Shown: piece after piece, positions 33,235 to 56,915 of the stretch
How positions within the stretch are numbered: the first letter of the stretch is position 1
How the letters are laid out: each line of letters starts with the position of its first letter
Assembly: GCA_003554145.1 (NCBI GenBank)
Contig: PWFS01000001.1
Location: 1,439-65,438 of the forward strand
Source: Halobacteroidaceae bacterium
GTDB lineage: Bacteria; Bacillota; Halanaerobiia; B1SED10-174
DNA: 64,000 bases
Reading direction: 5' to 3'
The notes under the pieces: generated by a model
The model's database searches: none
The model's input: the letters and a program-made list of their open reading frames with translations, nothing else
Told to the model about the DNA's origin: nothing
Position numbers and translations under genes: made by a program

Positions 33235-33510
33235 TTGCCGTTGGAGGAGGAAGAGGTTAGAAGGAGGTGGGGGGTTTTGCTGACCATAAAGTGTGCCCGC
33301 TGCAAGAGCAAAGTCATGCAGTATAAAAAAATCGGGCAGGGTCGGGTTTTGCGCTGCTATCTCCCTCGGATCAAACGATTTTTTGCCCGGGTGGAAAAAG
33401 GTCAACTTCAGTGTCCGGGCTGTGATAATATTATTGGGAAAAAGAAAACCGGGTTTTTTCAAATGAACCGCAGGGAGTTTACTTATTCCGGGAAAAAAAT
33501 AAAAAAATAA
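33235..33510 (+). CDS. Small basic zinc-ribbon protein (CxxC...CxxC); start uncertain
   Basis: CARCKS ... CPGCDN four-Cys arrangement; Lys/Arg-rich; possible TTG start near 33276 after GGAGGTG. Confidence 0.35.
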   Translation: MPLEEEEVRRRWGVLLTIKCARCKSKVMQYKKIGQGRVLRCYLPRIKRFFARVEKGQLQCPGCDNIIGKKKTGFFQMNRREFTYSGKKIKK

Positions 33511-35702: not shown

Positions 35703-37343
35703 ATGGTGGGTAAAGCCGTTTTAATTTTACTTTTAATTTTTTTTACTTCAGGCGGCTTGAGTTTTGCTCAGGAAGAATGGCCCGAAGGCTGGTCCCGGGA
35801 AGGGAGTGTTGCTGTATTTGGTGACTATTCTCGGGATTATAGCCTGTTGATTACCGGGAGTGGGGACCGCTTAGTTGCTGGATTTGAGGGAAGCACCGTT
35901 CGAAATATCAGGGCAACTTTGCTTCGCAATGGAAATGAGATCTATACTTCCCCTACTTTTTTTAACGCCTTTCAATCGGAATTGGTTGTTGATGAGAGGG
36001 GCGGTTATCATCTATTCTGGGTTGAGCGGGAGGGTAGCCTGCAGCGAATTCTCTACACCTATATTGATGGGGATGGAGAAATCCGCCAGGATAGCCTTAT
36101 TCTCCGGGAGAGCCCGTCGCGGATCGATGGGATGACCGCCGTTGAGAGAGTAGAAGGGGAAATTCACCTGATCTGGTCAGATGTGGAAAGACCGGAGGGT
36201 GTTCTGCTGCACATGATTATTGAAGAAGGGCAAATTGTCCAGGACTATCAGGTTCTGGTAAAAGATCCCTTCCGTCCCACCGGAAGTACTTTTGTTTTTG
36301 ACCGGGAGGGGTACCTCCATTTATTCTGGAGAAAAATTGATGATTGGGAAATGAATTGTTATTATCAGAAATTTACCCCCGAAGGTGAGGCAGCGGGCCC
36401 CGCGGACAAGCTGGTTAAGCTGACCAATCTGGATGGAGACCGCCGTCCGGTTATTGATGCTGAACTAAAGGCATTTTGGGATGAGGAGGGGCAGATCTAC
36501 CTGATTTTTTCCGGGCAGGATCAACAGGCAGGCATGGATAACGGCCATTTTTCGCAGATTGTACTGGAAAAAGGCCGTTCTCCCGGCGAACCCATGCGTA
36601 TTTCTCCCAGTTTTCAACGCCTGCAGTCCATGGATGCGATTATTACTCCTGAGGCCCTGCACCTGGCCTGGGTTCATTTCCAGGGGAATCGCTATCGGCC
36701 ATTTTATATGAAAGTTTCCCGGGAAGGGGAAATTCAGTATGGGCCTCAGGTTATGGATCTAACTACTTCTGGAGGTTTGAATCCCCGCCTGGCCCGGGAT
36801 AATGATTCCATTCACTATTTCTGGCAGAGAACAGGCAGCGAAGTTGGAACTGTTGATATACTGGCCCGCAATGACGGAAATCCCCAGTCTCCTCCCCTGG
36901 GTTATGCCCTGGGGCTGGGCAAACGTAATCCCCACCTGGGCTTTTTGTATGTCCTGGGGGTAGGATTTGTTTATGCAGCCCTGTTAACAGTTTTTGCAAA
37001 ATTCCTGGGCCCGGTCGCGGTTTATTTCATTCTGGCCCTGGCCAATCGTCTGAAATTGATTGGCAATCTGGAAAAATTTCCTGTGCACGGAGCCCTGGTA
37101 ATTATGGCCGGTTTATTTTTGTTCCAGGATACAGTACTGGACTTTATTCACCTGGAATGGTCTGGCCGTTTCTTCCCCCTGCTGGCAGCTTCACTGGCTT
37201 CTGCTTTTGCCCTCCTGATGAAAAAAGGGGAAAAACGATGGTTGAAACTGGATAATACCATGGGCTGGGTTTTCTTCATGGTGCTCTGGTTATACTGGTA
37301 TACCTTTTTAATCACGGTTCCGAATTTAATTATAACCTCCTGA
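35703..37343 (+). CDS. Paralog A: membrane-anchored repeat protein (EWPEGWS motif, six x-H-L-x-W repeats, C-terminal 4-TM domain); uncharacterised family
   Basis: Signal/TM MVGKAVLILLLIFF; repeats YHLFW, IHLIW, LHLFW, IYLIF, LHLAW, IHYFW spaced ~50 aa; hydrophobic C-terminal ~130 aa; 15 nt upstream of polA; paralogs at 39957 and 58974. Confidence 0.6.
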   Translation: MVGKAVLILLLIFFTSGGLSFAQEEWPEGWSREGSVAVFGDYSRDYSLLITGSGDRLVAGFEGSTVRNIRATLLRNGNEIYTSPTFFNAFQSELVVDERGGYHLFWVEREGSLQRILYTYIDGDGEIRQDSLILRESPSRIDGMTAVERVEGEIHLIWSDVERPEGVLLHMIIEEGQIVQDYQVLVKDPFRPTGSTFVFDREGYLHLFWRKIDDWEMNCYYQKFTPEGEAAGPADKLVKLTNLDGDRRPVIDAELKAFWDEEGQIYLIFSGQDQQAGMDNGHFSQIVLEKGRSPGEPMRISPSFQRLQSMDAIITPEALHLAWVHFQGNRYRPFYMKVSREGEIQYGPQVMDLTTSGGLNPRLARDNDSIHYFWQRTGSEVGTVDILARNDGNPQSPPLGYALGLGKRNPHLGFLYVLGVGFVYAALLTVFAKFLGPVAVYFILALANRLKLIGNLEKFPVHGALVIMAGLFLFQDTVLDFIHLEWSGRFFPLLAASLASAFALLMKKGEKRWLKLDNTMGWVFFMVLWLYWYTFLITVPNLIITS

Positions 37344-37360
37344 ATGGAGGTTGGGAGTTG

Positions 37361-39940
37361 ATGGTTTTGGCCAAGAAGTCTTTTATTATTGATGGGCACA
37401 GTCTCGCTCACCGCTGCTTTTATGCCATGCCTCCCCTCTCTACCCGGGGAAAACCCATGGGTGCAGTTTTTGGGGTGGCCAAAATTCTCCTGAAAATATT
37501 GCAGGAGGAAAAACCAGAATTTCTGGGGGTGGCTTTTGATCACCCCAGTCCTACTTTTCGCCACCGGGAGTTTCCGGATTATAAAGCTCAGCGGGAGAAG
37601 ACCCCAGATGAACTGCGACCTCAGTTTTCAGATATTAAGAAGCTTCTGCAGGTGATGGGTATCCCCATTTATGAGCAGGAAGGATTTGAAGCCGACGATG
37701 TCCTGGGCAGCCTGGCTCAAATTCTGAATAACAGGGATTATGAAACCTATATTATTACCGGGGACAAGGATAGCCTGCAACTGGTGGACGATAAGGTTCG
37801 GGTCCGCTATACCCTGCGGGGTATAACGGAAACTGTTGACTATACTCCCGAACAGATTGAGGAACAATATGGACTGGATCCCCAACAGCTAATTGATGTA
37901 AAAGCTCTGATGGGAGATAGCTCGGATAATATACCCGGGGTTCCGGGTATCGGGGAAAAAACCGCCCTACAGCTGATTAAAAAGTATGATAATGTGGAAA
38001 ACCTCCTGGACCATAGATCGGAAATTAAAGGCAAAAGAGGGCAGGCCATTGAAGAAAATAAGGATTTTATACTGCTGAACAAGAAACTGGTGACTATTGA
38101 AACCGGATTGTCAGTGGAAATAGGAAAAGACCTGAAACAGTACACTGACCCACCCTGGTCAGAGGTTGCGGAGCTTTTTCGCGAATGGCAGTTTTCCAGC
38201 CTGCTCAACGCCCTGCCCCTGGGCACAGAAGATCAACCTCCAAAAAAGGAAATCGATTTTCTGGAGATCGATAATGAAGAAGTTTGGGCCCGGGTTAAAG
38301 ATGATTTTAAACCCCTAAATCCCCTTCCAGTGGCCTGGGTGGTGCAGGGGCAGAGGCCCCTGGAATACAGGCTACAGAAACTGGCGCTGGGTGGCGAGGA
38401 TCAGGTGCTAATTTTTTCAGGGGAAAGTCTGCCTGAAGATATCCAGGAATTGCTTCAGAGTTCAGAGCAGGATAAAATTGGCCACAATTTTAAATCTGTT
38501 TTTAAGTTGATAAATCCGGGAGGGAAGCTATTCGACACTTCCCTGGCCTTTTATCTGCAGGAACCTGGAAGTGCTCCCCCCGAGTTGGGACAGCTGGTGG
38601 AAAGAATTTGCGGGGCAAACATAGAGGATGAAACAGATATTTCCGACCTGGCCCGCATGGTTAATTACCTGCCCGAGGTAGGGGAATACCTGGAGGAGCA
38701 ATTGGAGAAAAACAGCGTCCTGGAAGTTTTTGAAGAAGTTGAAGCCCCCCTTATTCCTGTTCTGGCAGAAATGGAGGCCAATGGAATAAAGATTGATCAG
38801 GAATTTCTTAAAAAACTCTCTGCAGAACTGGAGAAAAAGCTCCAGGGTATTAAAGAGAAAGCCTACAGCTATGCGGGGCGGGAGTTTAACCTCAACTCCC
38901 CCAAGCAACTGGGGGAGGTCCTGTTTGAGGAACTGGAGCTGCCGGTTTTAAAGAGGACCAAGACCGGTTATGGTACCGGGGCAGATATCCTGGAAAAGCT
39001 CCGGGACCAGCATCCCATTATTGAATATATTCTCCATCACCGCCAGCTGTCCAAGCTAAAATCCACCTATGTTGATGCTCTCCCGGCCCTGGTAAATTCC
39101 CGGACCGGTCGTCTGCACACCTCATTTCATCAGAATATTACTGCAACCGGTCGTCTCAGCAGTTCCGAGCCCAACCTGCAGAACATCCCCATCCGAACCA
39201 GGGAAGGACAGAAAATTCGGCGGGCTTTCGTTGCTGATAAGGGAAATATGCTCCTGGCTGCAGATTATTCCCAGATTGAATTGCGGGTTCTGGCCCATAT
39301 GGTGGGGGAGGGGGGCCTGAGGCGGGCCTTTTCTGAGGGTCGGGATATTCACACCCAGACTGCCAGTGAGGTTTTTGGGGTGGACCCTGGAGAAGTTGAT
39401 CCTGAGTTGCGGCGCCGGGCAAAAGTTATTAATTTTGGGCTGGCTTACGGAATGTCTGCTTACGGGCTGTCCCAGGATTTAGATGTTTCCCAGGAGGAGG
39501 CCAGGGATTATATCGAACGTTATTTCAACCGCTTTCCCGGGATGAAAGAATATATCGACAGTTGTATTCAAAAAGCCCGGGAGAAGGGATACGTGGAAAC
39601 CCTGCTCCAGAGAAAAAGATATCTTCCTGATATTAATCACCGGGTACCCCATCGGCGCAACTTTGCCGAAAGAATGGCTATTAACACTCCCATCCAGGGT
39701 ACTGCAGCTGATATTATGAAAATGGCCATGCTCAAAGTATTTGAAGAGTTGAAGTCCTGGCCAGGAGTACGCATTCTCCTCCAGGTCCATGACGAACTGG
39801 TCCTGGAGGTCCCAGAAAAAGAAGCAGAAGAGGTGGGAAAGGTAGTTGCCGAGGCCATGGAAAATGCTTTTGATCTTGCAGTTCCCCTGGAAGTGGATTT
39901 GAAAAAAGGTCCCAACTGGATGGATATGACGGCTTTTTAA
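37361..39940 (+). CDS. polA: DNA polymerase I (5'-3' exonuclease + vestigial 3'-5' exo + polymerase)
   Basis: 5'-nuclease N-terminus, pol motifs DYSQIELR (A), RRRAKVINFGLAYGMS (B), QVHDELVLEV (C); proofreading DxE motif not evident (Bst/Taq-like). Confidence 0.95.
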   Translation: MVLAKKSFIIDGHSLAHRCFYAMPPLSTRGKPMGAVFGVAKILLKILQEEKPEFLGVAFDHPSPTFRHREFPDYKAQREKTPDELRPQFSDIKKLLQVMGIPIYEQEGFEADDVLGSLAQILNNRDYETYIITGDKDSLQLVDDKVRVRYTLRGITETVDYTPEQIEEQYGLDPQQLIDVKALMGDSSDNIPGVPGIGEKTALQLIKKYDNVENLLDHRSEIKGKRGQAIEENKDFILLNKKLVTIETGLSVEIGKDLKQYTDPPWSEVAELFREWQFSSLLNALPLGTEDQPPKKEIDFLEIDNEEVWARVKDDFKPLNPLPVAWVVQGQRPLEYRLQKLALGGEDQVLIFSGESLPEDIQELLQSSEQDKIGHNFKSVFKLINPGGKLFDTSLAFYLQEPGSAPPELGQLVERICGANIEDETDISDLARMVNYLPEVGEYLEEQLEKNSVLEVFEEVEAPLIPVLAEMEANGIKIDQEFLKKLSAELEKKLQGIKEKAYSYAGREFNLNSPKQLGEVLFEELELPVLKRTKTGYGTGADILEKLRDQHPIIEYILHHRQLSKLKSTYVDALPALVNSRTGRLHTSFHQNITATGRLSSSEPNLQNIPIRTREGQKIRRAFVADKGNMLLAADYSQIELRVLAHMVGEGGLRRAFSEGRDIHTQTASEVFGVDPGEVDPELRRRAKVINFGLAYGMSAYGLSQDLDVSQEEARDYIERYFNRFPGMKEYIDSCIQKAREKGYVETLLQRKRYLPDINHRVPHRRNFAERMAINTPIQGTAADIMKMAMLKVFEELKSWPGVRILLQVHDELVLEVPEKEAEEVGKVVAEAMENAFDLAVPLEVDLKKGPNWMDMTAF

Positions 39941-39956
39941 AAGGGAGGAGAAGCCG

Positions 39957-41621
39957 GTGCGAAGGTTAACCTGGTTTATTCTGGGCCTGGCCATTCTTTG
40001 GGGGACGGGTACCGCAGCCCGAGAGGTGGAATGGCCCGAGGGCTGGTCTGCTGCAGAAACAATAGATCAGTATAGCATTTTCTCCCAGCGTTACGATGTT
40101 GACTTTAACCAGCAGCAGGATCAGTTTGTAGTTGCGGGAATTACAGGTTCCCGGGGTGCAATGCACCTGATCCTGGATATATTTGAAGCAGGTATTACCC
40201 CCCAAAAAAAGGACCGGCTTCTGGTGCGAGAAGAATCCAGTTTTATTGATTTTCCCCTGGTCTTTATTGATTCTTCTGGTAATTTTCTGTTATTCTGGAT
40301 GGAGGAAATTAATCGCATCCGCCATATTTATTTCCAAAAAATGGATAGAGATGGAAATTTTCTCGGGGATCGGGTAATTATCCTGGAATCTCCCCGCCGG
40401 ATCAGCAATATGCGGGGTTTTTTGGACGAAAAGGATCGGGTTCACTTGAACTGGACGGGCCTGGGAGAAACCGGCCTGGAAATCCACTACAGCCGGCTTG
40501 GGCCTGGGGGCGAGATTGAGCAGGAACCAATTGCCCTGACTTCTTCCGAGAAGTTTTCGTATCGAGGGCTGATTTTGAGTGATGGAGAAAAATTGCACCT
40601 GTTCTGGGTTGAATTGTTCCAGCTTTCTGCTGACTTACAATACCAGCAGTTTAACCTGGAGGGTGATCCCCTGGGTTCAAGCCAGACCATTGCCCATGTA
40701 TCCCTGGTGGATCGGGCTGGTTTTCCTTTTCTGGAAATATCCATGGACGGGGTGCTGGATGAGAGGGGTGAAATCCATCTGATCTGGAATGCCCAGGGAG
40801 ATGGTGACGATTTATTTCGTTCTGGTTCGGATATTTTTTACTCTCGGTTTCGGGATGGGAAAATGGTGGTGGAACCACAGAACCTTATTGCTTACTGGGC
40901 TGATGCCCATTTTCCCGTAATAGCTATAGCCGGTGATAAAATAAAAATTGCCTGGGAAGATCATCTCCGGGCCCCGGTTAGAATTGCCTATCAATCCTGG
41001 GAAAAAAATCAGGAAGGTCCAATAGAGTCTGTTTATCTCAATTACGGGGTCAATTCTGGCTTTTCTCCCCGCATCCTTATTGATGGGGAAGGTTGGGCCC
41101 ATGTGTTCTGGTATAATTTTTTTCGGGATAGAAATATTATAGAAGTTAAAACAATAAATCACCGTTACCCCGGAAGTCCTTCATTTTGGTACCAGCTGGG
41201 TTTGGGGACTGAAAGCCCATTCCAGCGATTGCTTTATGTCCTGGGGTTAAATTTTCTCCTCGCTCTTCTAAACAGTCTTACCCACCTCCATTTTATAATT
41301 ATTGTGATTTTGATGCTGGCCCTGGCCGGGAATTATCTGGATTTAAAAAAGTTTACCTGGGGAGTTATTTTTACCGGTTTTGCCCTGATTTTTTTATTAC
41401 AGGAAACGGGCTGGTACTATCAGCCCCTCTACCTGGAAGGGGGATTTGAATTTCTGTCTACAGCCCTGGCCGCTCTGCTGGTATATGTTTTTTTAAGGGC
41501 TTTTTCTGACTGGCCGGGGATTAAAGATGCCATGGGGCAATTTATAGTTTTCTGGCTTTTTGTTTACTGGCAGACCTTTTTTTCCTTTATTCCCCATTAT
41601 ATTAATGAGATTATCCCTTGA
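39957..41621 (+). CDS. Paralog B of the membrane-anchored repeat protein family
   Basis: GTG start after AGGGAGGAG; VEWPEGWS motif; repeats LLFWMEE, VHLNW, LHLFWVE, IHLIWNA, IKIAWED, AHVFWYN; C-terminal TM helices; 17 nt after polA stop. Confidence 0.6.
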   Translation: MRRLTWFILGLAILWGTGTAAREVEWPEGWSAAETIDQYSIFSQRYDVDFNQQQDQFVVAGITGSRGAMHLILDIFEAGITPQKKDRLLVREESSFIDFPLVFIDSSGNFLLFWMEEINRIRHIYFQKMDRDGNFLGDRVIILESPRRISNMRGFLDEKDRVHLNWTGLGETGLEIHYSRLGPGGEIEQEPIALTSSEKFSYRGLILSDGEKLHLFWVELFQLSADLQYQQFNLEGDPLGSSQTIAHVSLVDRAGFPFLEISMDGVLDERGEIHLIWNAQGDGDDLFRSGSDIFYSRFRDGKMVVEPQNLIAYWADAHFPVIAIAGDKIKIAWEDHLRAPVRIAYQSWEKNQEGPIESVYLNYGVNSGFSPRILIDGEGWAHVFWYNFFRDRNIIEVKTINHRYPGSPSFWYQLGLGTESPFQRLLYVLGLNFLLALLNSLTHLHFIIIVILMLALAGNYLDLKKFTWGVIFTGFALIFLLQETGWYYQPLYLEGGFEFLSTALAALLVYVFLRAFSDWPGIKDAMGQFIVFWLFVYWQTFFSFIPHYINEIIP

Positions 41622-41638
41622 GGGAGGCCTGGACAATT

Positions 41639-41854
41639 ATGGGTTTCTGGCAGGTTTTAATTCAGAAAAAAAGTATTCTTTTCATTGTATTGACTTTACT
41701 GGGTGCAGTTTGTGTTTTTGCCTATATCTATCTGGTAGGTTTGACTGAACCCGCTGAAAGAGGCAGTCTCTGGCTGCCCAAACTGATTATTTTCCTGGTC
41801 CTACTATTATCTCTGATTATTCGTTTTCAGGTGGACCGGTTTAAGAATAAATAG
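41639..41854 (+). CDS. Small 2-TM membrane protein
   Basis: GGGAGG RBS, two hydrophobic helices; overlaps end of paralog B. Confidence 0.4.
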   Translation: MGFWQVLIQKKSILFIVLTLLGAVCVFAYIYLVGLTEPAERGSLWLPKLIIFLVLLLSLIIRFQVDRFKNK

Positions 41855-41870: not shown

Positions 41871-42737
41871 TTGCCCGAACTGCCAGAAGTAGAAACTGTG
41901 CTGCAATCATTACTTCCAATTCTTCAGGGAAAAACAGTTAATTCTGTAAAAATCAATCACCCCCAGGTAATAGGGTGGCCAGAGTCGCCCCTGACCTTTG
42001 CCCGGGAGTTGACCGGTTTGATTTTCCGGGATGGCCACCGCCGGGGCAAATTTTTAATTTTCCAGATGTCGGGTGAGCGCAGGCTTATTTTTCACCTGCG
42101 GATGACCGGTCAGCTTTTTTATCAGGAAGGGTTTGTTTCTCCTGCCCCCCATACCCACCTGATTCTGGTTCTATCTGGAGGTGGGGCAGTTAACTTTAAG
42201 GATACCCGGCGTTTTGGGAGAGCATATTTACTGCGACCGGGAGAGGAAAAAGAGGCGGGGAACCTGGAGAGACTTGGTCCAGAACCCCTGGATCCAGATT
42301 TTTCCCCAAATGACTTTAAGGATGTTTTAAAAAAAAGGTCCGGCCGGATAAAATCCCTTCTTTTAAATCAATGTTTTCTGGCGGGGCTGGGAAATATTTA
42401 TGTTGATGAAATACTATTCCGCAGCTCTGTTCACCCGGAAACACCGGCTTCCCGCCTGAGGGAAGAGGAAATGGATCGCCTTTACTGCAACATGCGAACC
42501 ATTCTCCGGGAGGCGATATCGGGTCGGGGGACCACTTTCCGGGACTATCGCGATGGAACCGGTCAGGCGGGCGATTTTCAGGGGTTACTACAGGTTTATG
42601 GCCGGGAAGGTCAGAACTGTCCCCATTGTGCGGAGGAAATCAGAAGAAAAAAAGTAGCGGGAAGAAGTTCTTTTTTCTGTCCTCGCTGTCAGAAGGATGA
42701 TAGTTATGACCCTGATTCGATTGGAGAATGTAAGTAA
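41871..42737 (+). CDS. mutM: Formamidopyrimidine-DNA glycosylase
   Basis: (M)PELPEVETV N-terminus with catalytic Pro2/Glu3, C-terminal CPHC...CPRCQ zinc finger; TTG start. Confidence 0.9.
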   Translation: MPELPEVETVLQSLLPILQGKTVNSVKINHPQVIGWPESPLTFARELTGLIFRDGHRRGKFLIFQMSGERRLIFHLRMTGQLFYQEGFVSPAPHTHLILVLSGGGAVNFKDTRRFGRAYLLRPGEEKEAGNLERLGPEPLDPDFSPNDFKDVLKKRSGRIKSLLLNQCFLAGLGNIYVDEILFRSSVHPETPASRLREEEMDRLYCNMRTILREAISGRGTTFRDYRDGTGQAGDFQGLLQVYGREGQNCPHCAEEIRRKKVAGRSSFFCPRCQKDDSYDPDSIGECK

Positions 42738-44565
42738 ATATTTTTCGGGAGAACTTCTTCTGGAAGGAGTTAATCTACAGGTTGAGAACGGTGACCGCCT
42801 GGGTTTAATTGGCAGGAATGGTACGGGAAAAACCACTCTCCTGGAAATAATCCGGGGGAATAAAGAAGCTGATCAGGGGGTAATTGAGCGCAATCGCAAT
42901 ATTACTACTGGATTTTTGCCCCAGACCCTGCTGTGGGCCCAGGAAGGTCTGGTTTCTGATTATCTGTGGAAGGCCTTTTCGGAACAGGTGCAGCTTCGAA
43001 AACAACTGGAAAAAATTACGGAGGCAATAAGCGAAAAAGCAGATAGTACTCTTCTGGAGAAATATGCCCGACTGCAGGAAAAATTTGAAGAAGCCGGGGG
43101 CTATGAATGTGAGAGCAGAATCCGGGGCATCATTAACGGGCTTGGTTTTGCCGAAGAAGCTCTGGACCGGGATCTGAGGAGTTTCAGTGGAGGGGAAAAA
43201 ACCCGCCTGGCCCTGGCCCGCCTTCTTTTGGAAAAGCCAGACCTTTTACTCCTGGATGAACCAACCAATCACCTGGACCGCAACAATCGGGAGTGGCTGG
43301 CCTCTTTTCTCCAGGATTATCCAGGGGCCCTGATTCTGGTTTCTCACGACCGCTATTTTCTGGATCAGGTGGTGCAGGGTATTCTGGAAATTGATTACTG
43401 CCACCTTTATAATTATCCAGGCAATTATTCCAGCTTCACCCAGCAGCGGGAATTAAAAGTTAAAACCTGGGCCCGCGAATATGAAAAACAGCAGGAAGAA
43501 ATTGCAGCCCTGGAAGATTTTATCCGTAGATACAAGGCTGGACAGCGAACTAAAGAAGCCCGGGCCCGGGAAAAGAGACTGGAGCGAATGAAGCGTATTC
43601 CTCCACCTCCGCCGCCTCGCAAGAAATTAAAACTTCGTTTTCCCCTGAATCGCATGAGTGGCCAGGAGGTTTTGGAAACCAGTAATCTGGGCTGTGTTAA
43701 AGAGGGCCGAAAACTTTTTTCCGGGGTGGAAACCGAGCTCCGGCGCGGGGAGAGAATTGCCTTTCTGGGTCCCAACGGGGCAGGAAAAACAACTTTTCTC
43801 AAGTGCCTTCTGGACAGTCATCCCCATCAGGGAATGGTTAAATGGGGGCACGGAGTAGAAACCGGTTATTTTGATCAAGAGGGAGGTTTTTTGCCCAGGG
43901 AAAAAACTCTTTTTGAAATTGTGGCCGATTATGGATTGACCCGCCGGCAGGATATAATGGATCATCTTGGTGCTTTTCGATTTGGCGGCGAAGAAGCAGA
44001 AAAGCAGGTGAAGATGTTAAGTGGAGGTGAGTTGTCCCGCTTTAATCTGGCCCTACTGGTTTTGCAGGGCGCCAATGTTCTTCTGCTGGATGAGCCCACC
44101 AATCACCTGGATCTGGATCTGCAGGAATGGCTGGAAGAGGCCATGGTTGCTTTTAAAGGAACCCTCGTTTTCACCTCCCATGATCGCTATTTTATTGAGC
44201 GGGTTGCCACCGGGATCTGGTATTTAAACAGGGGGTTTTTCAAGCAATTTTCGGGTAGTTATGAGGAATTTTTGGATTGGGAACGGGAATTATTGGCTTC
44301 CTGGAAAAAGCCTGCCCGGGCAAAAAAAGAAAGGGGCAAAAAAAAGGCGGTTCCCGCCAGAAAAGAAAACGGGAAAAAAAAGAGGCAGCACCTGGAAGAG
44401 GAAATATCCCGCCTGGAAAAAATTATAGGGGAATATAATTCGCTCTTTGCTGACCCAGAATTTTTTAAGAGGGACGATGTTGCAGAATTAACTGCTGATT
44501 ATGAAGAGAAGAAGGAAAAACTGGAAAAGCTAATGGAAGAATGGGAAAAGACCCTGGAAGAATAA
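42706..44565 (+). CDS. ABC-F family ATPase (two ABC domains, Uup-like C-terminal Lys-rich coiled coil)
   Basis: Two Walker A (GRNGTGKTT, GPNGAGKTT), two LSGGE signatures, inter-domain linker, C-terminal KKERGKKKAV...; overlaps mutM by 32 nt. Confidence 0.85.
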   Translation: MTLIRLENVSKYFSGELLLEGVNLQVENGDRLGLIGRNGTGKTTLLEIIRGNKEADQGVIERNRNITTGFLPQTLLWAQEGLVSDYLWKAFSEQVQLRKQLEKITEAISEKADSTLLEKYARLQEKFEEAGGYECESRIRGIINGLGFAEEALDRDLRSFSGGEKTRLALARLLLEKPDLLLLDEPTNHLDRNNREWLASFLQDYPGALILVSHDRYFLDQVVQGILEIDYCHLYNYPGNYSSFTQQRELKVKTWAREYEKQQEEIAALEDFIRRYKAGQRTKEARAREKRLERMKRIPPPPPPRKKLKLRFPLNRMSGQEVLETSNLGCVKEGRKLFSGVETELRRGERIAFLGPNGAGKTTFLKCLLDSHPHQGMVKWGHGVETGYFDQEGGFLPREKTLFEIVADYGLTRRQDIMDHLGAFRFGGEEAEKQVKMLSGGELSRFNLALLVLQGANVLLLDEPTNHLDLDLQEWLEEAMVAFKGTLVFTSHDRYFIERVATGIWYLNRGFFKQFSGSYEEFLDWERELLASWKKPARAKKERGKKKAVPARKENGKKKRQHLEEEISRLEKIIGEYNSLFADPEFFKRDDVAELTADYEEKKEKLEKLMEEWEKTLEE

Positions 44566-44610: not shown

Positions 44611-45234
44611 TTGGAAAAAATAGGAATTACGGGAGGCCTGGGCACGGGCAAATCAAAGGTCCTGGAAATTGTTCGAAAATTGGGGAGCCCGGCTATCAGC
44701 GCCGATGAAATAGTTCATCAGGAAATGGGAAAAGGCCAGAAGGTTTATGAAGAAATTGTCCACAGTTTCGGGGAAAATATCCTGGGAGAAAACGGTGAAA
44801 TTGACCGGTCCAGGCTGGCTGAAATCGTTTTCACAGATGAGAAAAAAAGGCAGCAACTGGAAGCACTGGTTCATCCCCGAGTCCGGGAAGTAATATTGGA
44901 ATTCTTTGACCAACAGGCCCGTAAGGAACCCTCCCCGGCGGCTGTTTTTGTTGAAGTGCCCCTTCTTTATGAGGTGGGCTGGGAAAAACATTTTGACCGG
45001 GTATGGGTGGTTTATGCCCCCCGGGAAATGGTCCGCAATCGCCTATTAAAAGCCAATCGCTATTCTCCGGAAGATCTTAATGCCCGTCTTCAGGCCCAGA
45101 TGTCCCTCCGGGAAAAGGTAAAAAGGGCCGATGTAGTTATTGAGAATAAGGGCAGCCTGCGAGACCTGGAAAAAAGAGTCCGGGAGAGGTGGAGAAGAAT
45201 TCATGCCAAAAATAGCTCTGATCGCCCACGATAA
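44611..45234 (+). CDS. coaE: Dephospho-CoA kinase
   Basis: IGITGGLGTGKS P-loop; about 200 aa; TTG start after AGGGGAGGG. Confidence 0.85.
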   Translation: MEKIGITGGLGTGKSKVLEIVRKLGSPAISADEIVHQEMGKGQKVYEEIVHSFGENILGENGEIDRSRLAEIVFTDEKKRQQLEALVHPRVREVILEFFDQQARKEPSPAAVFVEVPLLYEVGWEKHFDRVWVVYAPREMVRNRLLKANRYSPEDLNARLQAQMSLREKVKRADVVIENKGSLRDLEKRVRERWRRIHAKNSSDRPR

Positions 45235-45613: not shown

Positions 45614-46165
45614 ATGAAAGCATTTTCCTTCCGGGCGGTATTATTTAATGCTGGAGTGGGTTTTTTGATTATTTTTCTCCTATTTCCTCAGCTGGGGCGG
45701 TTATATTACCCCTTTTTATTCCGGGAAGAAATAGAGGAACTGGGGGCAATTTATGACCTTGAACCAGAATTAATTGCTGCCCTGATCCACGTAGAAAGCA
45801 AATTTAATACTGCAGCCGAATCGGGCAAAGGCGCCCGAGGGCTCATGCAGATAATGCCTTCTACCGGGGCCTGGGTTGCGGGGGGGCTGGGCATTCTGGA
45901 TTTTGACCCCGAGGATCTTTTTGATCCCCAGGTCAATTTGCAGATTGGCTGCTGGTACCTGGCCAGTTTACGGGAAGAGTTTTCCAGCATTACAACTGCC
46001 CTGGCTGCCTATAATGCGGGGCGGGGTAATGTTAAGGGCTGGCTCAATAATGGCATCTGGGATGGGACCCCGGAAAATAGGGATGATATCCCCTTCCTGG
46101 AGACCAGGACTTACTTGAGTAGAATTGAGAGAACTCTGCACAGGTATAGGAGTTTGTACGAATAA
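45614..46165 (+). CDS. Lytic transglycosylase (SLT domain)
   Basis: LIHVESKFN (catalytic Glu), GLMQIMPSTG, AYNAG motifs. Confidence 0.75.
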   Translation: MKAFSFRAVLFNAGVGFLIIFLLFPQLGRLYYPFLFREEIEELGAIYDLEPELIAALIHVESKFNTAAESGKGARGLMQIMPSTGAWVAGGLGILDFDPEDLFDPQVNLQIGCWYLASLREEFSSITTALAAYNAGRGNVKGWLNNGIWDGTPENRDDIPFLETRTYLSRIERTLHRYRSLYE

Positions 46166-46335: not shown

Positions 46336-48051
46336 GTGAAAAAAAGTCTGGTTGTGTTTTTTGTGGGGGCATTGGTCCTGGCCATGTCCTTTTCCGTAAT
46401 CGCCGCCGTGCCCGCCGATTACGTTGAATCTCCCTATCCAGTGGGGAATGTGGGGGAAACTCTCTTAAGTTCTCAAATTTCTGACCCAAGAACTTTTAAT
46501 ACCCATATTGCCAAGGAAACCTCTTCTACAGATGTTATTAATCAGTTTTTGACCTCTTTTACCCGCCGTGATCCTCATACTGCCGAGATCATTCCTAATC
46601 TGGCTAAGGGATGGGATTTCAGTGATGATGGACTGGAGTGGACTTTTTATCTTCGTGAGGGGGCAAAATGGAGTGATGGAACGCCCATCACTGCCTATGA
46701 TGCGGAATTCACCTTTGACGTAATTTATGACGAAACTGTTCCCACCAGCTCCCGGGATGTTTTGCAGGTAGCAGGGCAGTATCTGGATTATGAAGTTATT
46801 GATGATTACACTTTCCGCCTGTATCTTCCCGAGCCTTTTGCTCCTCTGCTTGCCACCCTGCCCAATATTGTTCCCAAGCATGCCCTTTATGATGCGTGGG
46901 AAGCCGGGGACTATAATGAAACCTGGAGTATTAATACTCCACCCTCAGAAATAATCGGTTCAGCTGCCTTTATGCTGGGTGGCTATCGTCCGGGTGAGCG
47001 TGTTGTTCTGCTTCGTAATCCCAACTTCTGGCATGTAAATGAGCGGGGAGACGCCCTGCCTTATATTAGCCGCTGGATTATGCAGATTGTTGAAAGTCAG
47101 GATGCTGCCAGTCTTGCCTTTGAAGCTGGAGAAACCCATGTAAACAGTGTGCGTCCGGCTGACTATGCGCGTTATCGCATGAATGAGCGTAACTGGAATA
47201 TGCAGGTGCATAATATGGGCCCAACTTTCAGCACCCTTTTTGTTATCATGAATATGAATCCACGGGGTCCGCACTTTGAAGAAGAGCCCTACAAACTGGA
47301 ATGGTTCAAAAATCTCCATTTCCGCAGGGCAGTAGCTCATGCTGTGGATAAGTATACCATGGTTGATCAGCTCTATGATGGGCTGGCTACTCCTCAGTGG
47401 TCTCCAGTTAGTGCGCCCAATGAATTCTTCCTCAATCCCGATGTCAAGAAATATGAGTATGACCTGGATGCAGCCCGGGAAGAACTGGAAAAGGGTGGCT
47501 TTACCTGGGATGCCCAGGGCCGGCTGTTTGATGATGATGGTAATCGGGTCAGCTTTATTCTGACCACCAATGCCGGTGTTGATGTGCGCGAAGGTGCCGG
47601 TAACCTGCTACAGGCTGACCTGCAGGAGCTGGGTATGGACGTAACCTTCACCCCGGTTGATTTCAACTACCTGGTCAATCAGCTGACCAGTGAGTTTGAA
47701 TGGGATATGATGATTATGGGTCTTACCGGTGGCCTCGAACCCCATACCGGCCGCAATGTATGGCATTCTTCGGGTAACCTGCATATGTGGAATCCTTTAC
47801 AGGATGAGCCCGCTACCGAATGGGAAGCCCGGATAGATGAAATCTTTGACGAAGCTGCAACTGTTCTCGATCCGGATGAGCGCCAGGCTCTCTATTATGA
47901 GTGGCAGGAAATTATTGCCGAACAGGTTCCCATTATTTATACCGTTGTTCAGGATAGTCTCCTTGCTATGCGCAACACGGTTAAGAATGCTGATCCTACC
48001 ATTGTTGGCGGCTGGACTCACAATATAGAAAGTCTCTTTATTGAAAGATAG
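46336..48051 (+). CDS. oppA: ABC transporter substrate-binding protein, family 5 (oligopeptide/dipeptide)
   Basis: 571 aa; signal peptide without lipobox Cys; family-5 SBP size and composition; GTG start after AAGGAGG; heads permease/ATPase operon. Confidence 0.8.
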   Translation: MKKSLVVFFVGALVLAMSFSVIAAVPADYVESPYPVGNVGETLLSSQISDPRTFNTHIAKETSSTDVINQFLTSFTRRDPHTAEIIPNLAKGWDFSDDGLEWTFYLREGAKWSDGTPITAYDAEFTFDVIYDETVPTSSRDVLQVAGQYLDYEVIDDYTFRLYLPEPFAPLLATLPNIVPKHALYDAWEAGDYNETWSINTPPSEIIGSAAFMLGGYRPGERVVLLRNPNFWHVNERGDALPYISRWIMQIVESQDAASLAFEAGETHVNSVRPADYARYRMNERNWNMQVHNMGPTFSTLFVIMNMNPRGPHFEEEPYKLEWFKNLHFRRAVAHAVDKYTMVDQLYDGLATPQWSPVSAPNEFFLNPDVKKYEYDLDAAREELEKGGFTWDAQGRLFDDDGNRVSFILTTNAGVDVREGAGNLLQADLQELGMDVTFTPVDFNYLVNQLTSEFEWDMMIMGLTGGLEPHTGRNVWHSSGNLHMWNPLQDEPATEWEARIDEIFDEAATVLDPDERQALYYEWQEIIAEQVPIIYTVVQDSLLAMRNTVKNADPTIVGGWTHNIESLFIER

Positions 48052-48138
48052 TTGGAGTAATTAAAATAAGGGGGGAGAGTTTCCTCTTCCCCCTTAATTT
48101 TTTATTCTATCTGATCGCTGGGGGAGAGGAGGCCTAGT

Positions 48139-49110
48139 ATGAGGATTTATATAATCCGGCGAATTCTGCAAATGTTTCCCCTGCTTTTGGGTATCAGTAT
48201 GATGAGCTTTTTTGTACTGAACCTATCGCCGGGGGATTTCCTTGCCCAGATAGAAATGAATCCAGACATCTCGGCAACTTTAATTGCCCAGATGCGGGCA
48301 GATTTTGGCCTGGACCAACCGGTGTGGGTTCAGTATTTTTACTGGCTGCGGGAACTATTAAGATTAAATTTTGGCGAATCTTTTGCCTATCGGATTCCTG
48401 TGGAACAGTTGATTGGTTTTCGAATAATGAATACCTTCCGGCTGTCCCTGGCCGCAACGGTTTTAACCTGGGTTGTGGCAATTCCAGTGGGGATTCATGC
48501 TGCAATTAACCGCTATTCACTGCGGGATAATGTTCTTACCTTTTTCACCTTTTTTGGAATATCCGTACCCAACTTTTTCTTTGGGTTGATTCTTCTATTC
48601 CTGATTGCCAGATATGGATTGTTAGGTTTACCCGTGGGGGGTATGACTTCATGGTACCACGAAGAATTATCTTTTATGGCCAGGATGTGGGACTATATTC
48701 GTCACCTTATTCCACCGACCATAGTTCTGGCAACTGCAGGAATGGCCGGCCTGATGCGTCAAATGCGAGGGCAGATGATGGATGCAATGAGTCAGGATTA
48801 TATACGAACTGCACGATCCAAGGGCTTGAATGATCGGGTGGTTATTTATAAACATGCTCTGCGTAATGCCATCAACCCCCTGATTACTATTTTTGGTTTT
48901 AGTATCAGTGCTCTTTTGAGTGGAGCTGCAATTACCGAGGTAGTTTTCAGTTATCCAGGTCTGGGGAATATGCTCCTTACTGCAGTAAGGCAAAAAGATC
49001 TATATGTCGCCATGGCTGGACTTATGATGGGAAGTGTTCTTCTTATCCTGGGGAATCTTCTGGCAGATATTCTGCTTGCAGTTACCGATCCCCGGATAAG
49101 ATATAATTAG
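48139..49110 (+). CDS. oppB: Oligopeptide ABC transporter permease
   Basis: DYIRTARSKGL...VIYKHALRNA signature of OppB/DppB. Confidence 0.85.
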   Translation: MRIYIIRRILQMFPLLLGISMMSFFVLNLSPGDFLAQIEMNPDISATLIAQMRADFGLDQPVWVQYFYWLRELLRLNFGESFAYRIPVEQLIGFRIMNTFRLSLAATVLTWVVAIPVGIHAAINRYSLRDNVLTFFTFFGISVPNFFFGLILLFLIARYGLLGLPVGGMTSWYHEELSFMARMWDYIRHLIPPTIVLATAGMAGLMRQMRGQMMDAMSQDYIRTARSKGLNDRVVIYKHALRNAINPLITIFGFSISALLSGAAITEVVFSYPGLGNMLLTAVRQKDLYVAMAGLMMGSVLLILGNLLADILLAVTDPRIRYN

Positions 49111-49128
49111 AGGAAAGGAGGTATAATT

Positions 49129-50466
49129 GTGCAGCAACCTCCAGCCAATCAGGATTTTGAAAAGCAAAGAAAAAAAATGGAGAGCGAAGAAGATTTTATC
49201 CGCTCACCTATAAGGGTAGCCTGGATGCGATTAAAAAGGCACCGCCTGGCTCTTTTTGGGGGAATTGTTCTGGCAATTCTTTATTTCTCTGTTATTTTTG
49301 CCCCCCTGTATGCTCCCTATGACCCCTATCAGCAGTTCCGGGGGAAATCATATCACCCTCCTGTTTCCATCCGGGTTCGAGATGAGGATGGGAATTTCCG
49401 AATGCCCTTTATCTACAATTACCTCCGTGGCCACCGCTATATGATATATGGATATTTTGATCAGGAGGATCCGGATACTGGTGAGATGACTGAACTTGAG
49501 GAGGACCTGGGGACTTTTGATGTTGTTGACCGGGCGGAGGCCCATGGTAAGGCCGAAAAAATTGCGGAGGAAGAAGGAGCAGATGATTTCACCTATTTCC
49601 CAATTATGAGGATCTGGGTGGAAGACAGGCAGGAATCACCCCGCTTTCCGTTGAAACTATTTGCAGAGTCGGATAGAGATTTTTCGGTTCTCGGAATTCC
49701 TGCCAGTACAAAAATCCTGGGTCTGGGAGAACCCAGCTTTGCAGACCCCTATTCTGAGCGGGAAACCGCACGTATTTTTCTGTACGGTACTGATCAGTTT
49801 GGCCGGGATAATTTCAGTAGACTTCTGCACGGAGGTCGGGTCTCCCTGTTTATTGGTATCGTAGCCCTGATGATCAGTACTTTTATTGGAATGATTTTTG
49901 GAGGCATTTCCGGGTATTATGGAGGCTGGATTGATAACATGATGATGCGCCTGGCAGAAGTGGTTATGAGTTTCCCGCAATTTTATCTACTCATGGCCCT
50001 GGCCGCGGTTTTACCCCTGGACATGACTTCTGCTGCCCGGTTCTTTTTAATCGTTGTGATCCTGGCTTTTGTAGGCTGGGCCGGCCTGGCCCGGGTTATC
50101 CGGGGTATGGTTCTATCCATCAGTCAGCAGGACTTTGTCGAGGCTGCACGAGCTCTGGGCGGTAGTGACCTGCGAATTATTATTCGTCATGTTCTTCCCA
50201 ACACCTACACTTATGTAATTGTAGCTGCAACCCTGGCCCTTCCCGGCTATATTCTGACCGAGGCTGGATTGAGCTTTTTGGGCCTGGGGATACAGCAACC
50301 ACAGGCCAGCTGGGGGAACATGTTATCAGCGGCCCAGAGCATTAGAGTTTTGACCGAAAATGCCTGGCTACTGGTTCCCGGTTTCTTTATTTTTATTGCT
50401 GTTCTGGCGTTCAGTTTCTTGGGTGACGGCATCCGAGATGCTTTTGATCCCAAGACTGATGTATAA
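49129..50466 (+). CDS. oppC: Oligopeptide ABC transporter permease with extended N-terminal periplasmic region
   Basis: C-terminal OppC/DppC permease core (EAARALGGSDLRII); about 150 extra N-terminal residues after first TM. Confidence 0.85.
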   Translation: MQQPPANQDFEKQRKKMESEEDFIRSPIRVAWMRLKRHRLALFGGIVLAILYFSVIFAPLYAPYDPYQQFRGKSYHPPVSIRVRDEDGNFRMPFIYNYLRGHRYMIYGYFDQEDPDTGEMTELEEDLGTFDVVDRAEAHGKAEKIAEEEGADDFTYFPIMRIWVEDRQESPRFPLKLFAESDRDFSVLGIPASTKILGLGEPSFADPYSERETARIFLYGTDQFGRDNFSRLLHGGRVSLFIGIVALMISTFIGMIFGGISGYYGGWIDNMMMRLAEVVMSFPQFYLLMALAAVLPLDMTSAARFFLIVVILAFVGWAGLARVIRGMVLSISQQDFVEAARALGGSDLRIIIRHVLPNTYTYVIVAATLALPGYILTEAGLSFLGLGIQQPQASWGNMLSAAQSIRVLTENAWLLVPGFFIFIAVLAFSFLGDGIRDAFDPKTDV

Positions 50467-50488
50467 AAGAAAGGAGGCTTAACAAAAA

Positions 50489-51514
50489 GTGGCAAAAGAT
50501 GTGCAGAACGAGAAGAAATCCAAAGAACTACTCTTAGAGGTCAAAAACCTAAAAACCTACTTTCACACCGAGGACGGCGTGGTTAAAGCTGTTGATGGTG
50601 TATCCTTTGAAATTTACAAAGGAGAGGTATTAGGTATTGTTGGAGAATCTGGTTGTGGCAAAAGTGTAACCTCGCTGTCTATTATGCGCCTGGTCCAGGA
50701 ACCCCCTGGGAAAATCTCTGCCGACACACTTACTTTTGAAGGAGCGGAAATCCTGAAAAAGAGTGAATCTGCTATGAGGAGGATCAGGGGGAATGATATC
50801 TCCATGATCTTCCAGGAGCCGATGACCTCGCTGAACCCGGTGTATACTGTTGGAAATCAGATTTCCGAAGCCATTATTCTCCACCAGAAATTGTCCAAGG
50901 ACAAGGCTATGAAAAATGCGGTCGAAATGCTGCGCAAGGTTGGTATTCCGCTTCCCGAGAAAAGGGTGCATGAATACCCCCACCAGCTTTCCGGTGGTAT
51001 GCGCCAGCGGGTAATGATCGCCATGGCACTGTCCTGTAACCCTAAACTCTTGATTGCCGACGAACCAACCACCGCACTGGATGTTACCATCCAGGCCCAG
51101 ATCCTGGAGTTAATGGGTTCTTTGCAGCGGGATTTCGATGCAGCCATTATGTTGATCACTCATGACCTGGGAGTAGTTGCTGAGACCGCCGACCGAGTAG
51201 TGGTTATGTATGCGGGTAAGGTAGTGGAATATAGTGATGTGAATACGATTTTCCACAATCCTCGCCACCCCTATACCTGGGGTCTTCTGCAGTCCATCCC
51301 GCGTCTTGATGAAGAGCGGGAGCGACTCCTGGTAATTGAAGGTGTGGTTCCCAATCCGCTATTCCTGCCGGATGGTTGCAAATTCCACCCTCGCTGTCGT
51401 TTTGCTTCTGAGAGATGTTCAGAAGAAGAACCCGAACTGGAAAATATCAATCAAGATCATCAAGTTCGCTGCTGGCATTATGATAAAGTTGCCGAAGCGG
51501 ATAAAAAGGTTTAA
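50489..51514 (+). CDS. oppD: Oligopeptide ABC transporter ATP-binding protein
   Basis: GESGCGKS Walker [10 protein letters not shown]-terminal oligopeptide-ABC Cys-containing extension. Confidence 0.9.
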
Positions 51515-51530
51515 TTGGAGGTGAATTCTG

Positions 51531-52529
51531 GTGGCTAACGAAGAAATCCTACTAGAAGTCAATAATCTCAAGAAATACTTTCCCATAAAGGGTGGAGTTT
51601 TCGGCCGGGTTGTTGGCAATGTTAAAGCTGTAGACGGAGTTTCCTTTTATGTAAATAAAGGGGAGACTGTGGGACTTGTTGGTGAATCCGGTTGTGGCAA
51701 GACCACGACCGGGAAAGTTGTTCTCCGCCTGGAAGAAGCAACAGAAGGCGAAATTCTTTTTGAGGGTCGCAATGTCCTGGAACTGGGGCGGGAAGAAATG
51801 CGCAGCCTGCGCCGGGAAATGCAGATAATTTTCCAGGACCCCTATAGTTCACTGAACCCCCGGATGACCGTTGGCAATATTATCGGGGAAGCCCTGGAAA
51901 TTCACGGTCTGGCCCGGGGTAAGGCCAAGGAAAAGAAAGTTAAAGAACTTCTGGAAGTTGTTGGGCTTACCGCCCATCACATGCGCCGCTATCCTCACGA
52001 GTTTAGCGGTGGGCAGCGTCAGCGGATCGGTGTAGCCCGAGCCCTGGCCGTGGATCCCAAATTGATTGTATGTGATGAACCTGTTTCAGCCCTTGACGTT
52101 TCTATTCAGGCCCAGGTTATTAACCTGATGGAGGATTTGCAGAAGGAATTTGACCTGACCTATCTATTTATTGCCCACGACTTGAGTGTGGTCAAGCATA
52201 TCAGTGACCGGATTGCAGTTATGTATCTGGGGAAAATTGTTGAACTGGCTGATAAAGCGGCACTGTTTAAAAAACCCATTCATCCCTATACCCAGGCTCT
52301 TCTCTCCGCCATTCCCATTCCTGATCCAGCAATTAAGAGGGAGAAGATAATTCTGAAGGGTGATGTTCCCAGCCCAGTTAATCCTCCCTCGGGTTGCCGT
52401 TTTCACACCCGTTGCCCCTACGTTATGGATATTTGCAAAACAGAGGAACCCGAATTTGTGGACTGGGGAGATCGGCACTTTGCTGCCTGTCACCTGGAAG
52501 AAGGTGCTCCCGAAAGAGAAGTTCTTTAA
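51531..52529 (+). CDS. oppF: Oligopeptide ABC transporter ATP-binding protein
   Basis: [18 protein letters not shown]-terminal CRFHTRCP motif. Confidence 0.9.
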
Positions 52530-52552
52530 ACCAAACTCAAATCAGGATAGAA

Positions 52553-52581
52553 AAGGAGAGGCCAGCCCTCTCCTTTTTCTT
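52553..52581 (+). terminator. Rho-independent terminator of opp operon (GGAGAGG-ccagc-CCTCTCC + TTTTTCTT)
   Basis: 7-bp GC stem plus T-run 24 nt after oppF stop. Confidence 0.6.
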
Positions 52582-52891
52582 ATGGGTGTGCCCGACATAT
52601 CTATTGAGGATCTCGCCTTTTATGGCAGATTAGGATGATGAAAAGGGCAAGATTGCCCAGGGGCTGGAGGCGCTGTAGGGAGCAGTCTGACGAACTGTAG
52701 AGTAGAAGAGGAGCACTGGGAAGGGAGCCCAGTGTGGGAATTTTGGCCTAATGGATGAAACTTATTCGGGAGCAGCTTATGCGGCTCGTAGGCAAGTTAT
52801 AGGAGAGGGGAAGTCCTCGTTTAGCTCGGGGCTTCTCCACTCAATTTTTTTCGGGTGCTGGCAGGAAATGGCTCCAGAAAAATTATATTAC

Positions 52892-55427: not shown

Positions 55428-56915
55428 ATGTTTTTTGCAGGGGGGATAATTTTGGAAAAATGGCGTGATGTACTGGCCCTGCTTGTAATTCTGGGCCTGG
55501 TGGCAGCCTCCCTGGGGGCCATATTTTTCCTGCAAAGGGGAATTGATGTGCAGGTTTTTACTCCGGAAAATCGTATTGTGGCCCGAAATATAGGGGCCAC
55601 TGGTGAAGTGCATTTTTCGGGGGGGGAGAGAGTGTATTCTCCTTTTGCGGGTATAATTGCCGAAGTCCAGGTAAAAAAAGGAGAACTGGTGGAAAAGGGC
55701 GATCCCCTTTTTATTTATGATACCGAGGAATGGGAAAGAGAATTAATGCAGTTGAAACTGCGCTTCCAGCAGCTAAAAGAGGAAGAATCTTTTAGGGAAA
55801 ATCAAATTCGAAGAGAACTTGCTGACCTGGAAGCCAGAAAAATGGACTGGCTTTTGCGGGAAGAAGAACTTCATTATTCTCAGGATATAAGAAAATGGGA
55901 AATGGAATGTTTGATCCAGGATCTGGAAAGGGAATTAGATCAGGCGAGAAAAGATCTGGCTGATCTGGAGGATTTTTATCATTCAGAATATGTTACCTGG
56001 CGAGAAGTTCAAAAAGCACGGGATCAAGTTGCAAACCTGGACCATGAACTGAAAAGGGCCAGGTTGGACCAGAAACAGGTCCTGGAGGTTGAATTCCCCC
56101 TGCAGGAAAAGATTTTAAACAGAGAAGGTTTGCGGATCAGTAACAAAATAGAAGAAACCCGCAAAAAACTGGAAGTTTTCCTGGAAAAAAAAGGCCTGAA
56201 TTCTGCCTACCAGGAAATGGAACTAATTCAGGGCAGCATTGAACAACTGGAACTGAGGCTGGCGAATAAGGAAGTGATGGCTCCAGAAGAGGGGCTGGTT
56301 AACAGCCTGATGCTGGAACAGGGCCAGAGGGTTAATCAAGGATTGCTGGCCCTAGAAATTAATGATCCTGCTGCAATTGAGATTGTTCTGAAGGTCAACT
56401 CCCGGGATTTTCACCGACTGGAAAAGGGGCAGGAGGTGGAGGTTTTCCTGGAGGACATTCATCCTCCCCTGAGTGGAAAAATTGAATGGATAGCACCCTG
56501 GGCTGAAGAACAATTGGTAGAAACCGGGGTTGTTTTGACGGACCGGCGAGATCTTCTCCGGCCGGGAATGGTCGTAGAAGCACAGATTAATCTGACCGGA
56601 CGGCGCCTTCTGATACTTCCCCCCCAGGCAGTTTTTGAGCGTGAACTTCAAGATACCAGGATGATAATCAGGGAGGGAGAGGATACTGCCTATTATGTAT
56701 TTCTGGTGGACAAGGATTCCCGGGAGGTTTATCCCAGTCGGGTGCGTATCGGACAGGAAACTCAGGATTATATTGAAATTGTTTCCGGCCTCAGTGCTTC
56801 CAGCAATGTAGTTATCGGGGATACCGAGGCTCTTAACAGGTTGGAAGGCTACCTGACCGAGTGGGAACAGAGGTTGATTGAAGAAATCAGGGAAAATTTT
56901 ACTGATAATAATTAG
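55428..56915 (+). CDS. HlyD-family membrane-fusion / periplasmic adaptor protein (start may be TTG 55452)
   Basis: N-terminal TM, long coiled-coil heptad region (ELMQLKLRFQQLKEEE..., DLADLEDF...), C-terminal beta-barrel/lipoyl-like segments. Confidence 0.7.
   Translation: MFFAGGIILEKWRDVLALLVILGLVAASLGAIFFLQRGIDVQVFTPENRIVARNIGATGEVHFSGGERVYSPFAGIIAEVQVKKGELVEKGDPLFIYDTEEWERELMQLKLRFQQLKEEESFRENQIRRELADLEARKMDWLLREEELHYSQDIRKWEMECLIQDLERELDQARKDLADLEDFYHSEYVTWREVQKARDQVANLDHELKRARLDQKQVLEVEFPLQEKILNREGLRISNKIEETRKKLEVFLEKKGLNSAYQEMELIQGSIEQLELRLANKEVMAPEEGLVNSLMLEQGQRVNQGLLALEINDPAAIEIVLKVNSRDFHRLEKGQEVEVFLEDIHPPLSGKIEWIAPWAEEQLVETGVVLTDRRDLLRPGMVVEAQINLTGRRLLILPPQAVFERELQDTRMIIREGEDTAYYVFLVDKDSREVYPSRVRIGQETQDYIEIVSGLSASSNVVIGDTEALNRLEGYLTEWEQRLIEEIRENFTDNN

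Follow-up and report, generated by a model that had tools for sequence, protein, structure and literature searches.

Two genes for similar membrane proteins, here called A and B, closely flank the DNA polymerase I gene (polA) in a Halobacteroidaceae genome. What kind of protein do they encode, and does their position point to a function in DNA replication or repair? The genes lie in a stretch of 64,000 nucleotides (GenBank assembly GCA_003554145.1, contig PWFS01000001.1, positions 1,439 to 65,438), hereafter the window. Gene A (35703..37343) encodes 546 residues from its ATG; a TTG at 35646 is a possible alternative start. It is followed by polA (37358..39940, 860 residues), assigned from its open reading frame (ORF) and the Pfam domains of its orthologues, and by gene B (39957..41621, 554 residues). 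A distant relative, gene C (58974..60665, 563 residues), is located 17 kb from this bracket. All four genes are on the plus strand. A, B and C are paralogs of one unnamed membrane-protein family.

Architecture and predicted fold of the family

A and B share 25% identity over their full length (BLASTP, E 5e-37). BLASTP matches of C to A or B are weak (E 2e-4 to 0.02). C aligns with both from end to end, and the profile-profile alignment of the two groups, A+B and C (hhalign), gives a probability of 99.3% and an E-value of 2e-20 over 437 columns, including the membrane domain. The third paralog proposed in the initial annotation is thereby confirmed.

The motif WPEGWS occupies residues 26–31 of A (35778..35795) and of B (40032-40049, both on the plus strand), immediately after the N-terminal hydrophobic segment. 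It is not present in C. Motifs of the H-L-x-W type are found in A at residues 103 (HLFW), 155 (HLIW), 206 (HLFW), 266 (YLIF, degenerate), 320 (HLAW) and 371 (HYFW), and in B at residues 110 (FLLFW, degenerate), 163 (HLNW), 214 (HLFW), 274 (HLIW), 330 (KIAW, degenerate) and 382 (HVFW). Each protein thus has six repeats, 50–60 residues apart, with four strict and two degenerate motifs. The six motifs per protein described initially were found again. Alignment of the repeats on the conserved Trp reveals a seventh, degenerate repeat N-terminal to the six (about residues 41–85 of A). The pattern is not a product of chance: it matches a propeller that is predicted with confidence, and the profile of the family picks up the same blade in thousands of proteins.

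The AlphaFold2 model of A, calculated from a 20-sequence alignment, has a mean predicted local distance difference test (pLDDT) score of 79. Residues 30–390 are modelled as all-beta with a score of about 90. The propeller (residues 34–390, 35802..36872) consists of 28 strands, which correspond to seven four-stranded blades. Strand 34–40, right after WPEGWS, closes blade 7. The propeller suspected in the initial annotation is therefore supported by model and fold comparison, but its six blades have to be replaced by seven, the first being cryptic and the best structural matches being seven-bladed. The C-terminal domain (residues 410–545, 36930..37337) is modelled as four helices (410–449, 460–479, 491–509 and 519–545), and the hydropathy segments agree with membrane helices. 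Hydropathy and model thus bear out the proposed common layout of A and B, a signal or transmembrane segment, a propeller and a C-terminal domain of about four transmembrane helices. In B the membrane domain spans about residues 420–549. The model of C has a pLDDT of 76 (75–92 in the membrane domain), with the same layout and structural neighbours as A.

A signal peptide is predicted for residues 1–22 of A (35703..35768), where the hydropathy segment covers residues 1–24 and the model contains a helix from 2 to 17. Cleavage after GLSFA and before QEE is suggested by the A-x-A-like SFA motif. All family members have a signal-like N-terminal segment and the GWS core follows it after 8–14 residues. 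Loops ~449–458 and ~506–515 of A are rich in Lys and Arg; they are predicted to be cytoplasmic and comprise about 10–13 residues. The only basic positions conserved throughout the family, 449 and 508 (numbering of A), are found in these predicted cytoplasmic loops, and a QDT sequence is located at the outer end of helix 2. From the signal-like segment and the basic loops, we infer that the propeller, anchored in the cytoplasmic membrane by the four-helix bundle, is extracytoplasmic. Lipoprotein processing was rejected as a family feature; a convincing lipobox (LFSC) is present in one distant member only (P0008).

In a Foldseek search of the PDB, the top matches of A are GH145 proteins (4irt, 5mum, 5muk), the PL42 lyase FoRham1 (7esk) and PL24 and PL25 ulvan lyases, with E-values of about 1e-9, template modelling scores of about 0.6 on the target and an identity of about 11%. 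All structural neighbours (GH145, PL42, PL24/25, PLL lectins and CylK) are seven-bladed propellers, and the PLL lectins and CylK match A as well as the GH145 and PL enzymes do. The PLL/BP39L/CV39L lectins and the CylK propeller have no detectable sequence relationship to A, B and C. These lectins are soluble; CylK contains catalytic residues and, N-terminal to the propeller, a further domain. TolB, a soluble periplasmic protein in which a six-bladed propeller is joined to an N-terminal alpha/beta domain, was rejected as an assignment because of the seven blades, the membrane anchor and the lack of a TolB Pfam match and of tol-pal neighbours. Blade number, topology and the absence of hidden Markov model matches led to the rejection of WD40 and FtsX/MacB-like architectures.

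At the sequence level the family is poorly covered by existing libraries. None of the products of A, B, C and the small ORF downstream of B has a match above threshold in Pfam, NCBIfam or PADLOC, in line with the earlier view that this architecture fits no named family. The match of A to Pfam BNR_4 (PF15892) scores 12.2 bits with a cut-off of 27.3, B and C have no match to it, and it is detected at E ≤ 0.01 in only 5 of 44 full-length members. Pfam gives no match for the SBP_bac_5 domain in A, B or C; their fold is a propeller and not that of a binding protein. A sequence-profile search of the PDB returned chance matches only (e.g. AhpC, E ≥ 0.06).

Word-indexed searches yielded few homologues, and searching genomes and metagenomes with the A+B alignment brought up close relatives from soda lakes only. 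When 1.84 billion representatives were searched exhaustively with a profile, 9737 proteins were retrieved at E ≤ 1e-3. About 34 clusters at 50% identity among these matches are full-length members (515–600 residues, propeller and anchor). They include proteins from Anoxybacter fermentans (WP_127017045.1), a Halanaerobium metagenome-assembled genome (MAG) and Candidatus Acetothermia. The close relatives of A and B were all found in MAGs of soda-lake sediments, which bear the labels Halobacteroidaceae, Halanaerobiales or Bacillota. There are two to four paralogs per genome.

The remaining matches are proteins of 900–5960 residues that share the blade only and contain several matching stretches each. 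Large repeat proteins of Zixibacteria, Eisenbacteria and others, secreted or sorted by the type IX secretion system (T9SS), have the same blade of ~50 residues as A, B and C (D-x-x-G-x-F-V-V-x-W ... I-Y-x-Q-x-[FY]); their E-values in the profile search reach 1e-66. Unlike the A/B/C family, these uncharacterised proteins (900–6000 residues) combine many tandem propellers with other surface domains and have no four-helix anchor. Where source names are given for matches P0030–P0166, they read 'T9SS type A sorting domain-containing' or 'choice-of-anchor' surface proteins; BNR_4 covers them weakly.

No column is invariant across the 44 full-length members. Residues kept in at least 70% of them are Gly29, Trp30, Ser31, Trp158, Asp200, Gly203, His206, Trp209, Tyr221, Gly291, Trp323, Pro361, Trp374, Gly404, Trp529, Phe535 and Pro540. 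These positions belong to the D-x-x-G turn, the H-L-x-W strand and the Gly, Pro and Trp residues of the repeat and are thus structural. There is no conserved Arg in the propeller of these members, and the conserved His206 and Tyr221 are repeat positions.

The polA bracket and its distribution

Spacers of 14 nt (A-polA) and 16 nt (polA-B) separate the two genes from polA. The tight, operon-like spacing noted initially is confirmed, with both distances one nucleotide shorter than the 15 and 17 nt given there. B is followed after 17 nt by a small ORF (41639..41854, 71 residues), a predicted two-helix membrane hairpin according to its sequence, orthologues and alignment, and after another 16 nt by mutM (Fpg, 41871..42737). 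Each of these four spacers contains a Shine-Dalgarno sequence (GGAGG or GGGAGG). A scan for promoters and terminators, which overall did not exceed shuffled sequence, found no terminator-like hairpin in the spacers from A to mutM. The ABC-F ATPase gene (42697..44565) starts within the end of mutM, and coaE (44611..45234), a gene for an SLT lytic transglycosylase (45614..46165) and an operon for an Opp-type ABC importer (46336..52529; a family-5 binding protein, two permeases and two ATPases) complete the cluster. All of these genes are on the plus strand. The polA-mutM-coaE unit lies on one strand, with short spacers bearing ribosome-binding sites and no internal terminator-like site found. 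Co-transcription of A and B with the polA, mutM and coaE genes is probable.

The order tkt-A-polA-B-small ORF-mutM-ABCF-(MntP)-coaE-MGS-SLT-OppABCDF is present in every related locus of sufficient length. These loci (L001-L005, L008-L013, L017 and L024-L026) come from soda-lake Halanaerobiales and Halobacteroidaceae. The Opp operon, 4.7 kb downstream of B, is conserved in every relative whose sequence reaches that far. Across the syntenic loci the identity of polA is 55–79% and that of A falls to about 30%. One genome carries a second A-type copy in tandem. Membrane genes in the polA-mutM-coaE cluster had been called unusual. This does not hold, as in two relatives (L004 and L017) the ABC-F and coaE genes have a membrane gene of the MntP family between them. 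In Bacillus subtilis, ytaF is located between mutM and coaE. L017 has a fusion of coaE with the MGS-like gene, which encodes a single product of 320 residues (15341–16303).

Outside the soda-lake clade the picture is different. None of the more distant members (L014, L016, L018, L019, L020 and L021) is next to polA, so that the linkage to polA, which is consistent within the clade, does not extend to the family. In a rough neighbor-joining tree, which is indicative only, the polA-linked A and B clades are derived and Opp-linked members are found on several other branches. The bracket is probably a vertically inherited, lineage-specific gene order with A and B as hitch-hikers in a housekeeping operon. 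Hitch-hiking is favoured over a repair function by the lack of polA linkage elsewhere, by the predicted extracytoplasmic location of most of the protein and by the small size of its cytoplasmic loops. Of the two explanations offered in the initial annotation, the operon hitch-hiker fits better than a DNA-repair-coupled envelope function, as the polA linkage is confined to one clade and other members are found near Opp genes or elsewhere.

Transporter-linked contexts and candidate roles

Opp-type genes adjoin three of the six distant members that are not of the C type. In Anoxybacter (L014), the gene lies 3' of an OppABCDF operon and precedes a gene for a 77-residue membrane protein. The member in L020 starts within the end of a gene for a family-5 binding protein, and a full Opp operon comes after it. 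In Acetothermia (L021), the gene follows a series of binding protein, permease and permease. The other three have no Opp neighbour. In L018 the member is followed by a gene for a 74-residue membrane protein, in L019 it stands alone, and in L016 (Halanaerobium sp., JAXKWA010000094.1, 133–6368) it is located immediately upstream of genes for a LigD ligase, an FMN_bind protein, a LigD primase-polymerase and Ku. L016 represents a second, independent adjacency to DNA-repair genes, in this case of non-homologous end joining; it is a single, unexplained case on a 7-kb contig.

C-type genes are always located 3' of a gene for a fused OppB-OppC-like permease (one such pair in the window, two in L022 and one in L023). 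In the window this permease (56927..58993, plus strand) has 688 residues, two BPD_transp_1 domains and both EAA loops. The start of C overlaps its end by 20 nt, and an overlap is also present in L023. The cluster is headed by a gene for an HlyD-type periplasmic adaptor (55428..56915, plus strand; Pfam HlyD_3 and HlyD_D23), which is conserved in L022. There, the permease-C pair is duplicated in tandem (adaptor, permease, C, permease and C'; 672–9656). Neither an ATPase nor a binding-protein gene is found in cis of the permease-C modules of the window cluster and L022. The pairing of an HlyD-type adaptor with an importer-type permease (window 55428–60665 and L022) is unusual. Mla genes, too, are found near family members.

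The membrane protein of ~70 residues with two helices follows B in all relatives. Similar small ORFs are present after two distant members (L014, 11660–11893; L018, 2885–3109). The small proteins align as two-helix hairpins with few conserved residues. They may be a dedicated small partner of the family.

We infer a non-enzymatic role and a partnership with transporters. The reading tentatively preferred here, and judged just short of probable, is that the proteins are extracytoplasmic binding or scaffold modules, accessory to Opp-type transporters, and that A and B ride in the polA operon. The signal peptide would export the seven-bladed propeller to the periplasm of the diderm Halanaerobiales and the C-terminal four-helix bundle would anchor it in the cytoplasmic membrane. 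The propeller would serve as a platform for ligand binding or as a scaffold and not as a conserved enzyme. Such a role is likelier than that of a conserved enzyme because only structural positions are conserved and huge surface repeat proteins share the blade. Tethered to the membrane next to Opp-type ABC importers, the propeller would act as a receptor, capture or processing subunit. The tightest link is that of the C type, which would be translationally coupled to a fused OppBC-like permease with no binding protein or ATPase in cis. An accessory role for Opp transporters is the best available guess, given the repeated coupling in independent lineages, often with overlapping genes. A more specific version is unlikely, namely that the proteins are a new Opp partner subunit that receives or processes substrate. 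It would replace the soluble binding protein in the modules of HlyD-type adaptor, fused permease and C, and uptake by A and B would follow the expression of replication and repair genes. The substrates of A and B might then be peptides or cell-wall fragments freed by the clustered SLT enzyme.

Several observations weigh against the accessory role and against simple hitch-hiking. The transporter link comes from gene context. A and B are not adjacent to permease genes, and L016, L018 and L019 have no Opp neighbour at all. Opp operons are abundant in these genomes, with three within 20 kb in Anoxybacter, which makes chance adjacency likelier. In the model of A, the pLDDT of the membrane domain is only 50–78. 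The closest structural neighbours (GH145, PL42 and PL24/25) are enzymes, and a subfamily-specific active site is conceivable. Furthermore, the bracket survived down to 55% identity in polA and ~30% in A, which may reflect selection for co-expression and not inertia.

The enzymatic neighbours suggest a membrane-tethered enzyme of the BNR_4/GH145/PL42/PL24-25 type, which would cut uronic-acid glycans of the envelope or the environment, with the products then imported. The seven-bladed fold is indeed shared with these enzymes (BT3686, FoRham1, LOR_107 and PLSV_3936). The identity to them is only about 10%, the BNR_4 scores stay below the cut-off, and the lectins and CylK are equally good structural matches. 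The enzymes are soluble or secreted, whereas A, B and C carry the four-helix anchor. The active site of PL42, PL24 and PL25 consists of an Arg as neutraliser, a His or Tyr as base and acid, and a neighbouring His (PMC8377490). No counterpart of this catalytic set is conserved in the 44 family members, the only conserved His and Tyr being those of the repeat. A glycan-cutting enzyme is thus a doubtful explanation. An envelope-related role, e.g. as a periplasmic scaffold or peptidoglycan-associated factor for envelope architecture or biogenesis, with incidental adjacency to transporters, is judged improbable to the same degree. The periplasmic domain, the diderm host lineage, the nearby Mla and HlyD-type adaptor genes, the conserved SLT gene, the multiple paralogs and the structural-only conservation are in accordance with it. 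The family, however, also occurs in Acetothermia and other lineages, known envelope-biogenesis domains were not detected, and the start/stop overlaps with genes for permeases or binding proteins suggest a partnership that is specific to transporters.

The position next to polA and mutM could finally be taken literally, with A and B tethering the envelope to replication and repair or signalling between them. Conservation of the bracket throughout the clade, its tight junctions and the LigD and Ku genes next to the Halanaerobium homologue speak for such a coupling. It is nevertheless very improbable. Distant members lack the polA linkage, and most of the protein is predicted to be extracytoplasmic. 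The predicted cytoplasmic loops of ~10–13 residues leave little to contact cytoplasmic repair enzymes. Neither nucleic-acid-related domains nor PADLOC matches were found in the proteins, and membrane genes of the MntP family also ride in the cluster.

Other features of the window and relevance of the family

Upstream of the transketolase gene (tkt) are an N6/N4 DNA methyltransferase gene (32000–33052, minus strand) and an ORF for 91 residues with two CxxC pairs (33235–33510). Relatives have a methyltransferase gene and a 77-residue ORF at the equivalent positions. A DNA-damage gene, encoding an SOS-response-associated peptidase (SRAP), is located 10 kb upstream of the polA cluster (24611–25291). 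The histidine-biosynthesis operon and an amino-acid permease gene (11007–19490, minus strand) form a region with a higher GC content (about 0.51) and a GC skew opposite to that of the remaining window, consistent with the switch of the strand. An ORF-poor stretch of low GC content (about 0.41; 52530–55430) separates the Opp operon from the HlyD cluster. It contains the gene of a membrane-anchored protein of 178 residues with weak arrestin-like Pfam matches (54063–54599) and a tRNA-Leu(GAG) (55024–55110, minus strand). An Rfam scan of the window found one tRNA and nothing else.

The fold of A, B and C is known. The family itself, its architecture of BNR_4-like propeller, four-helix anchor and small membrane partner, and its association with transporters are not described in the libraries searched. 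Opp/Dpp-type importers (family-5 binding protein and OppBCDF) are recurrent neighbours of the family; to our knowledge, no accessory propeller subunit has been described for this class. The results define an unannotated family that comprises at least 34 full-length clusters (at 50% identity) and occurs in Halanaerobiales, Acetothermia and other anaerobes; its genomic partners provide a testable lead. The polA bracket is a clade-specific gene order and calls for caution in deriving a repair function from it. If the proteins are indeed transporter accessories, they would represent a new type of component for the well-studied Opp ABC importers, especially in diderm Firmicutes.

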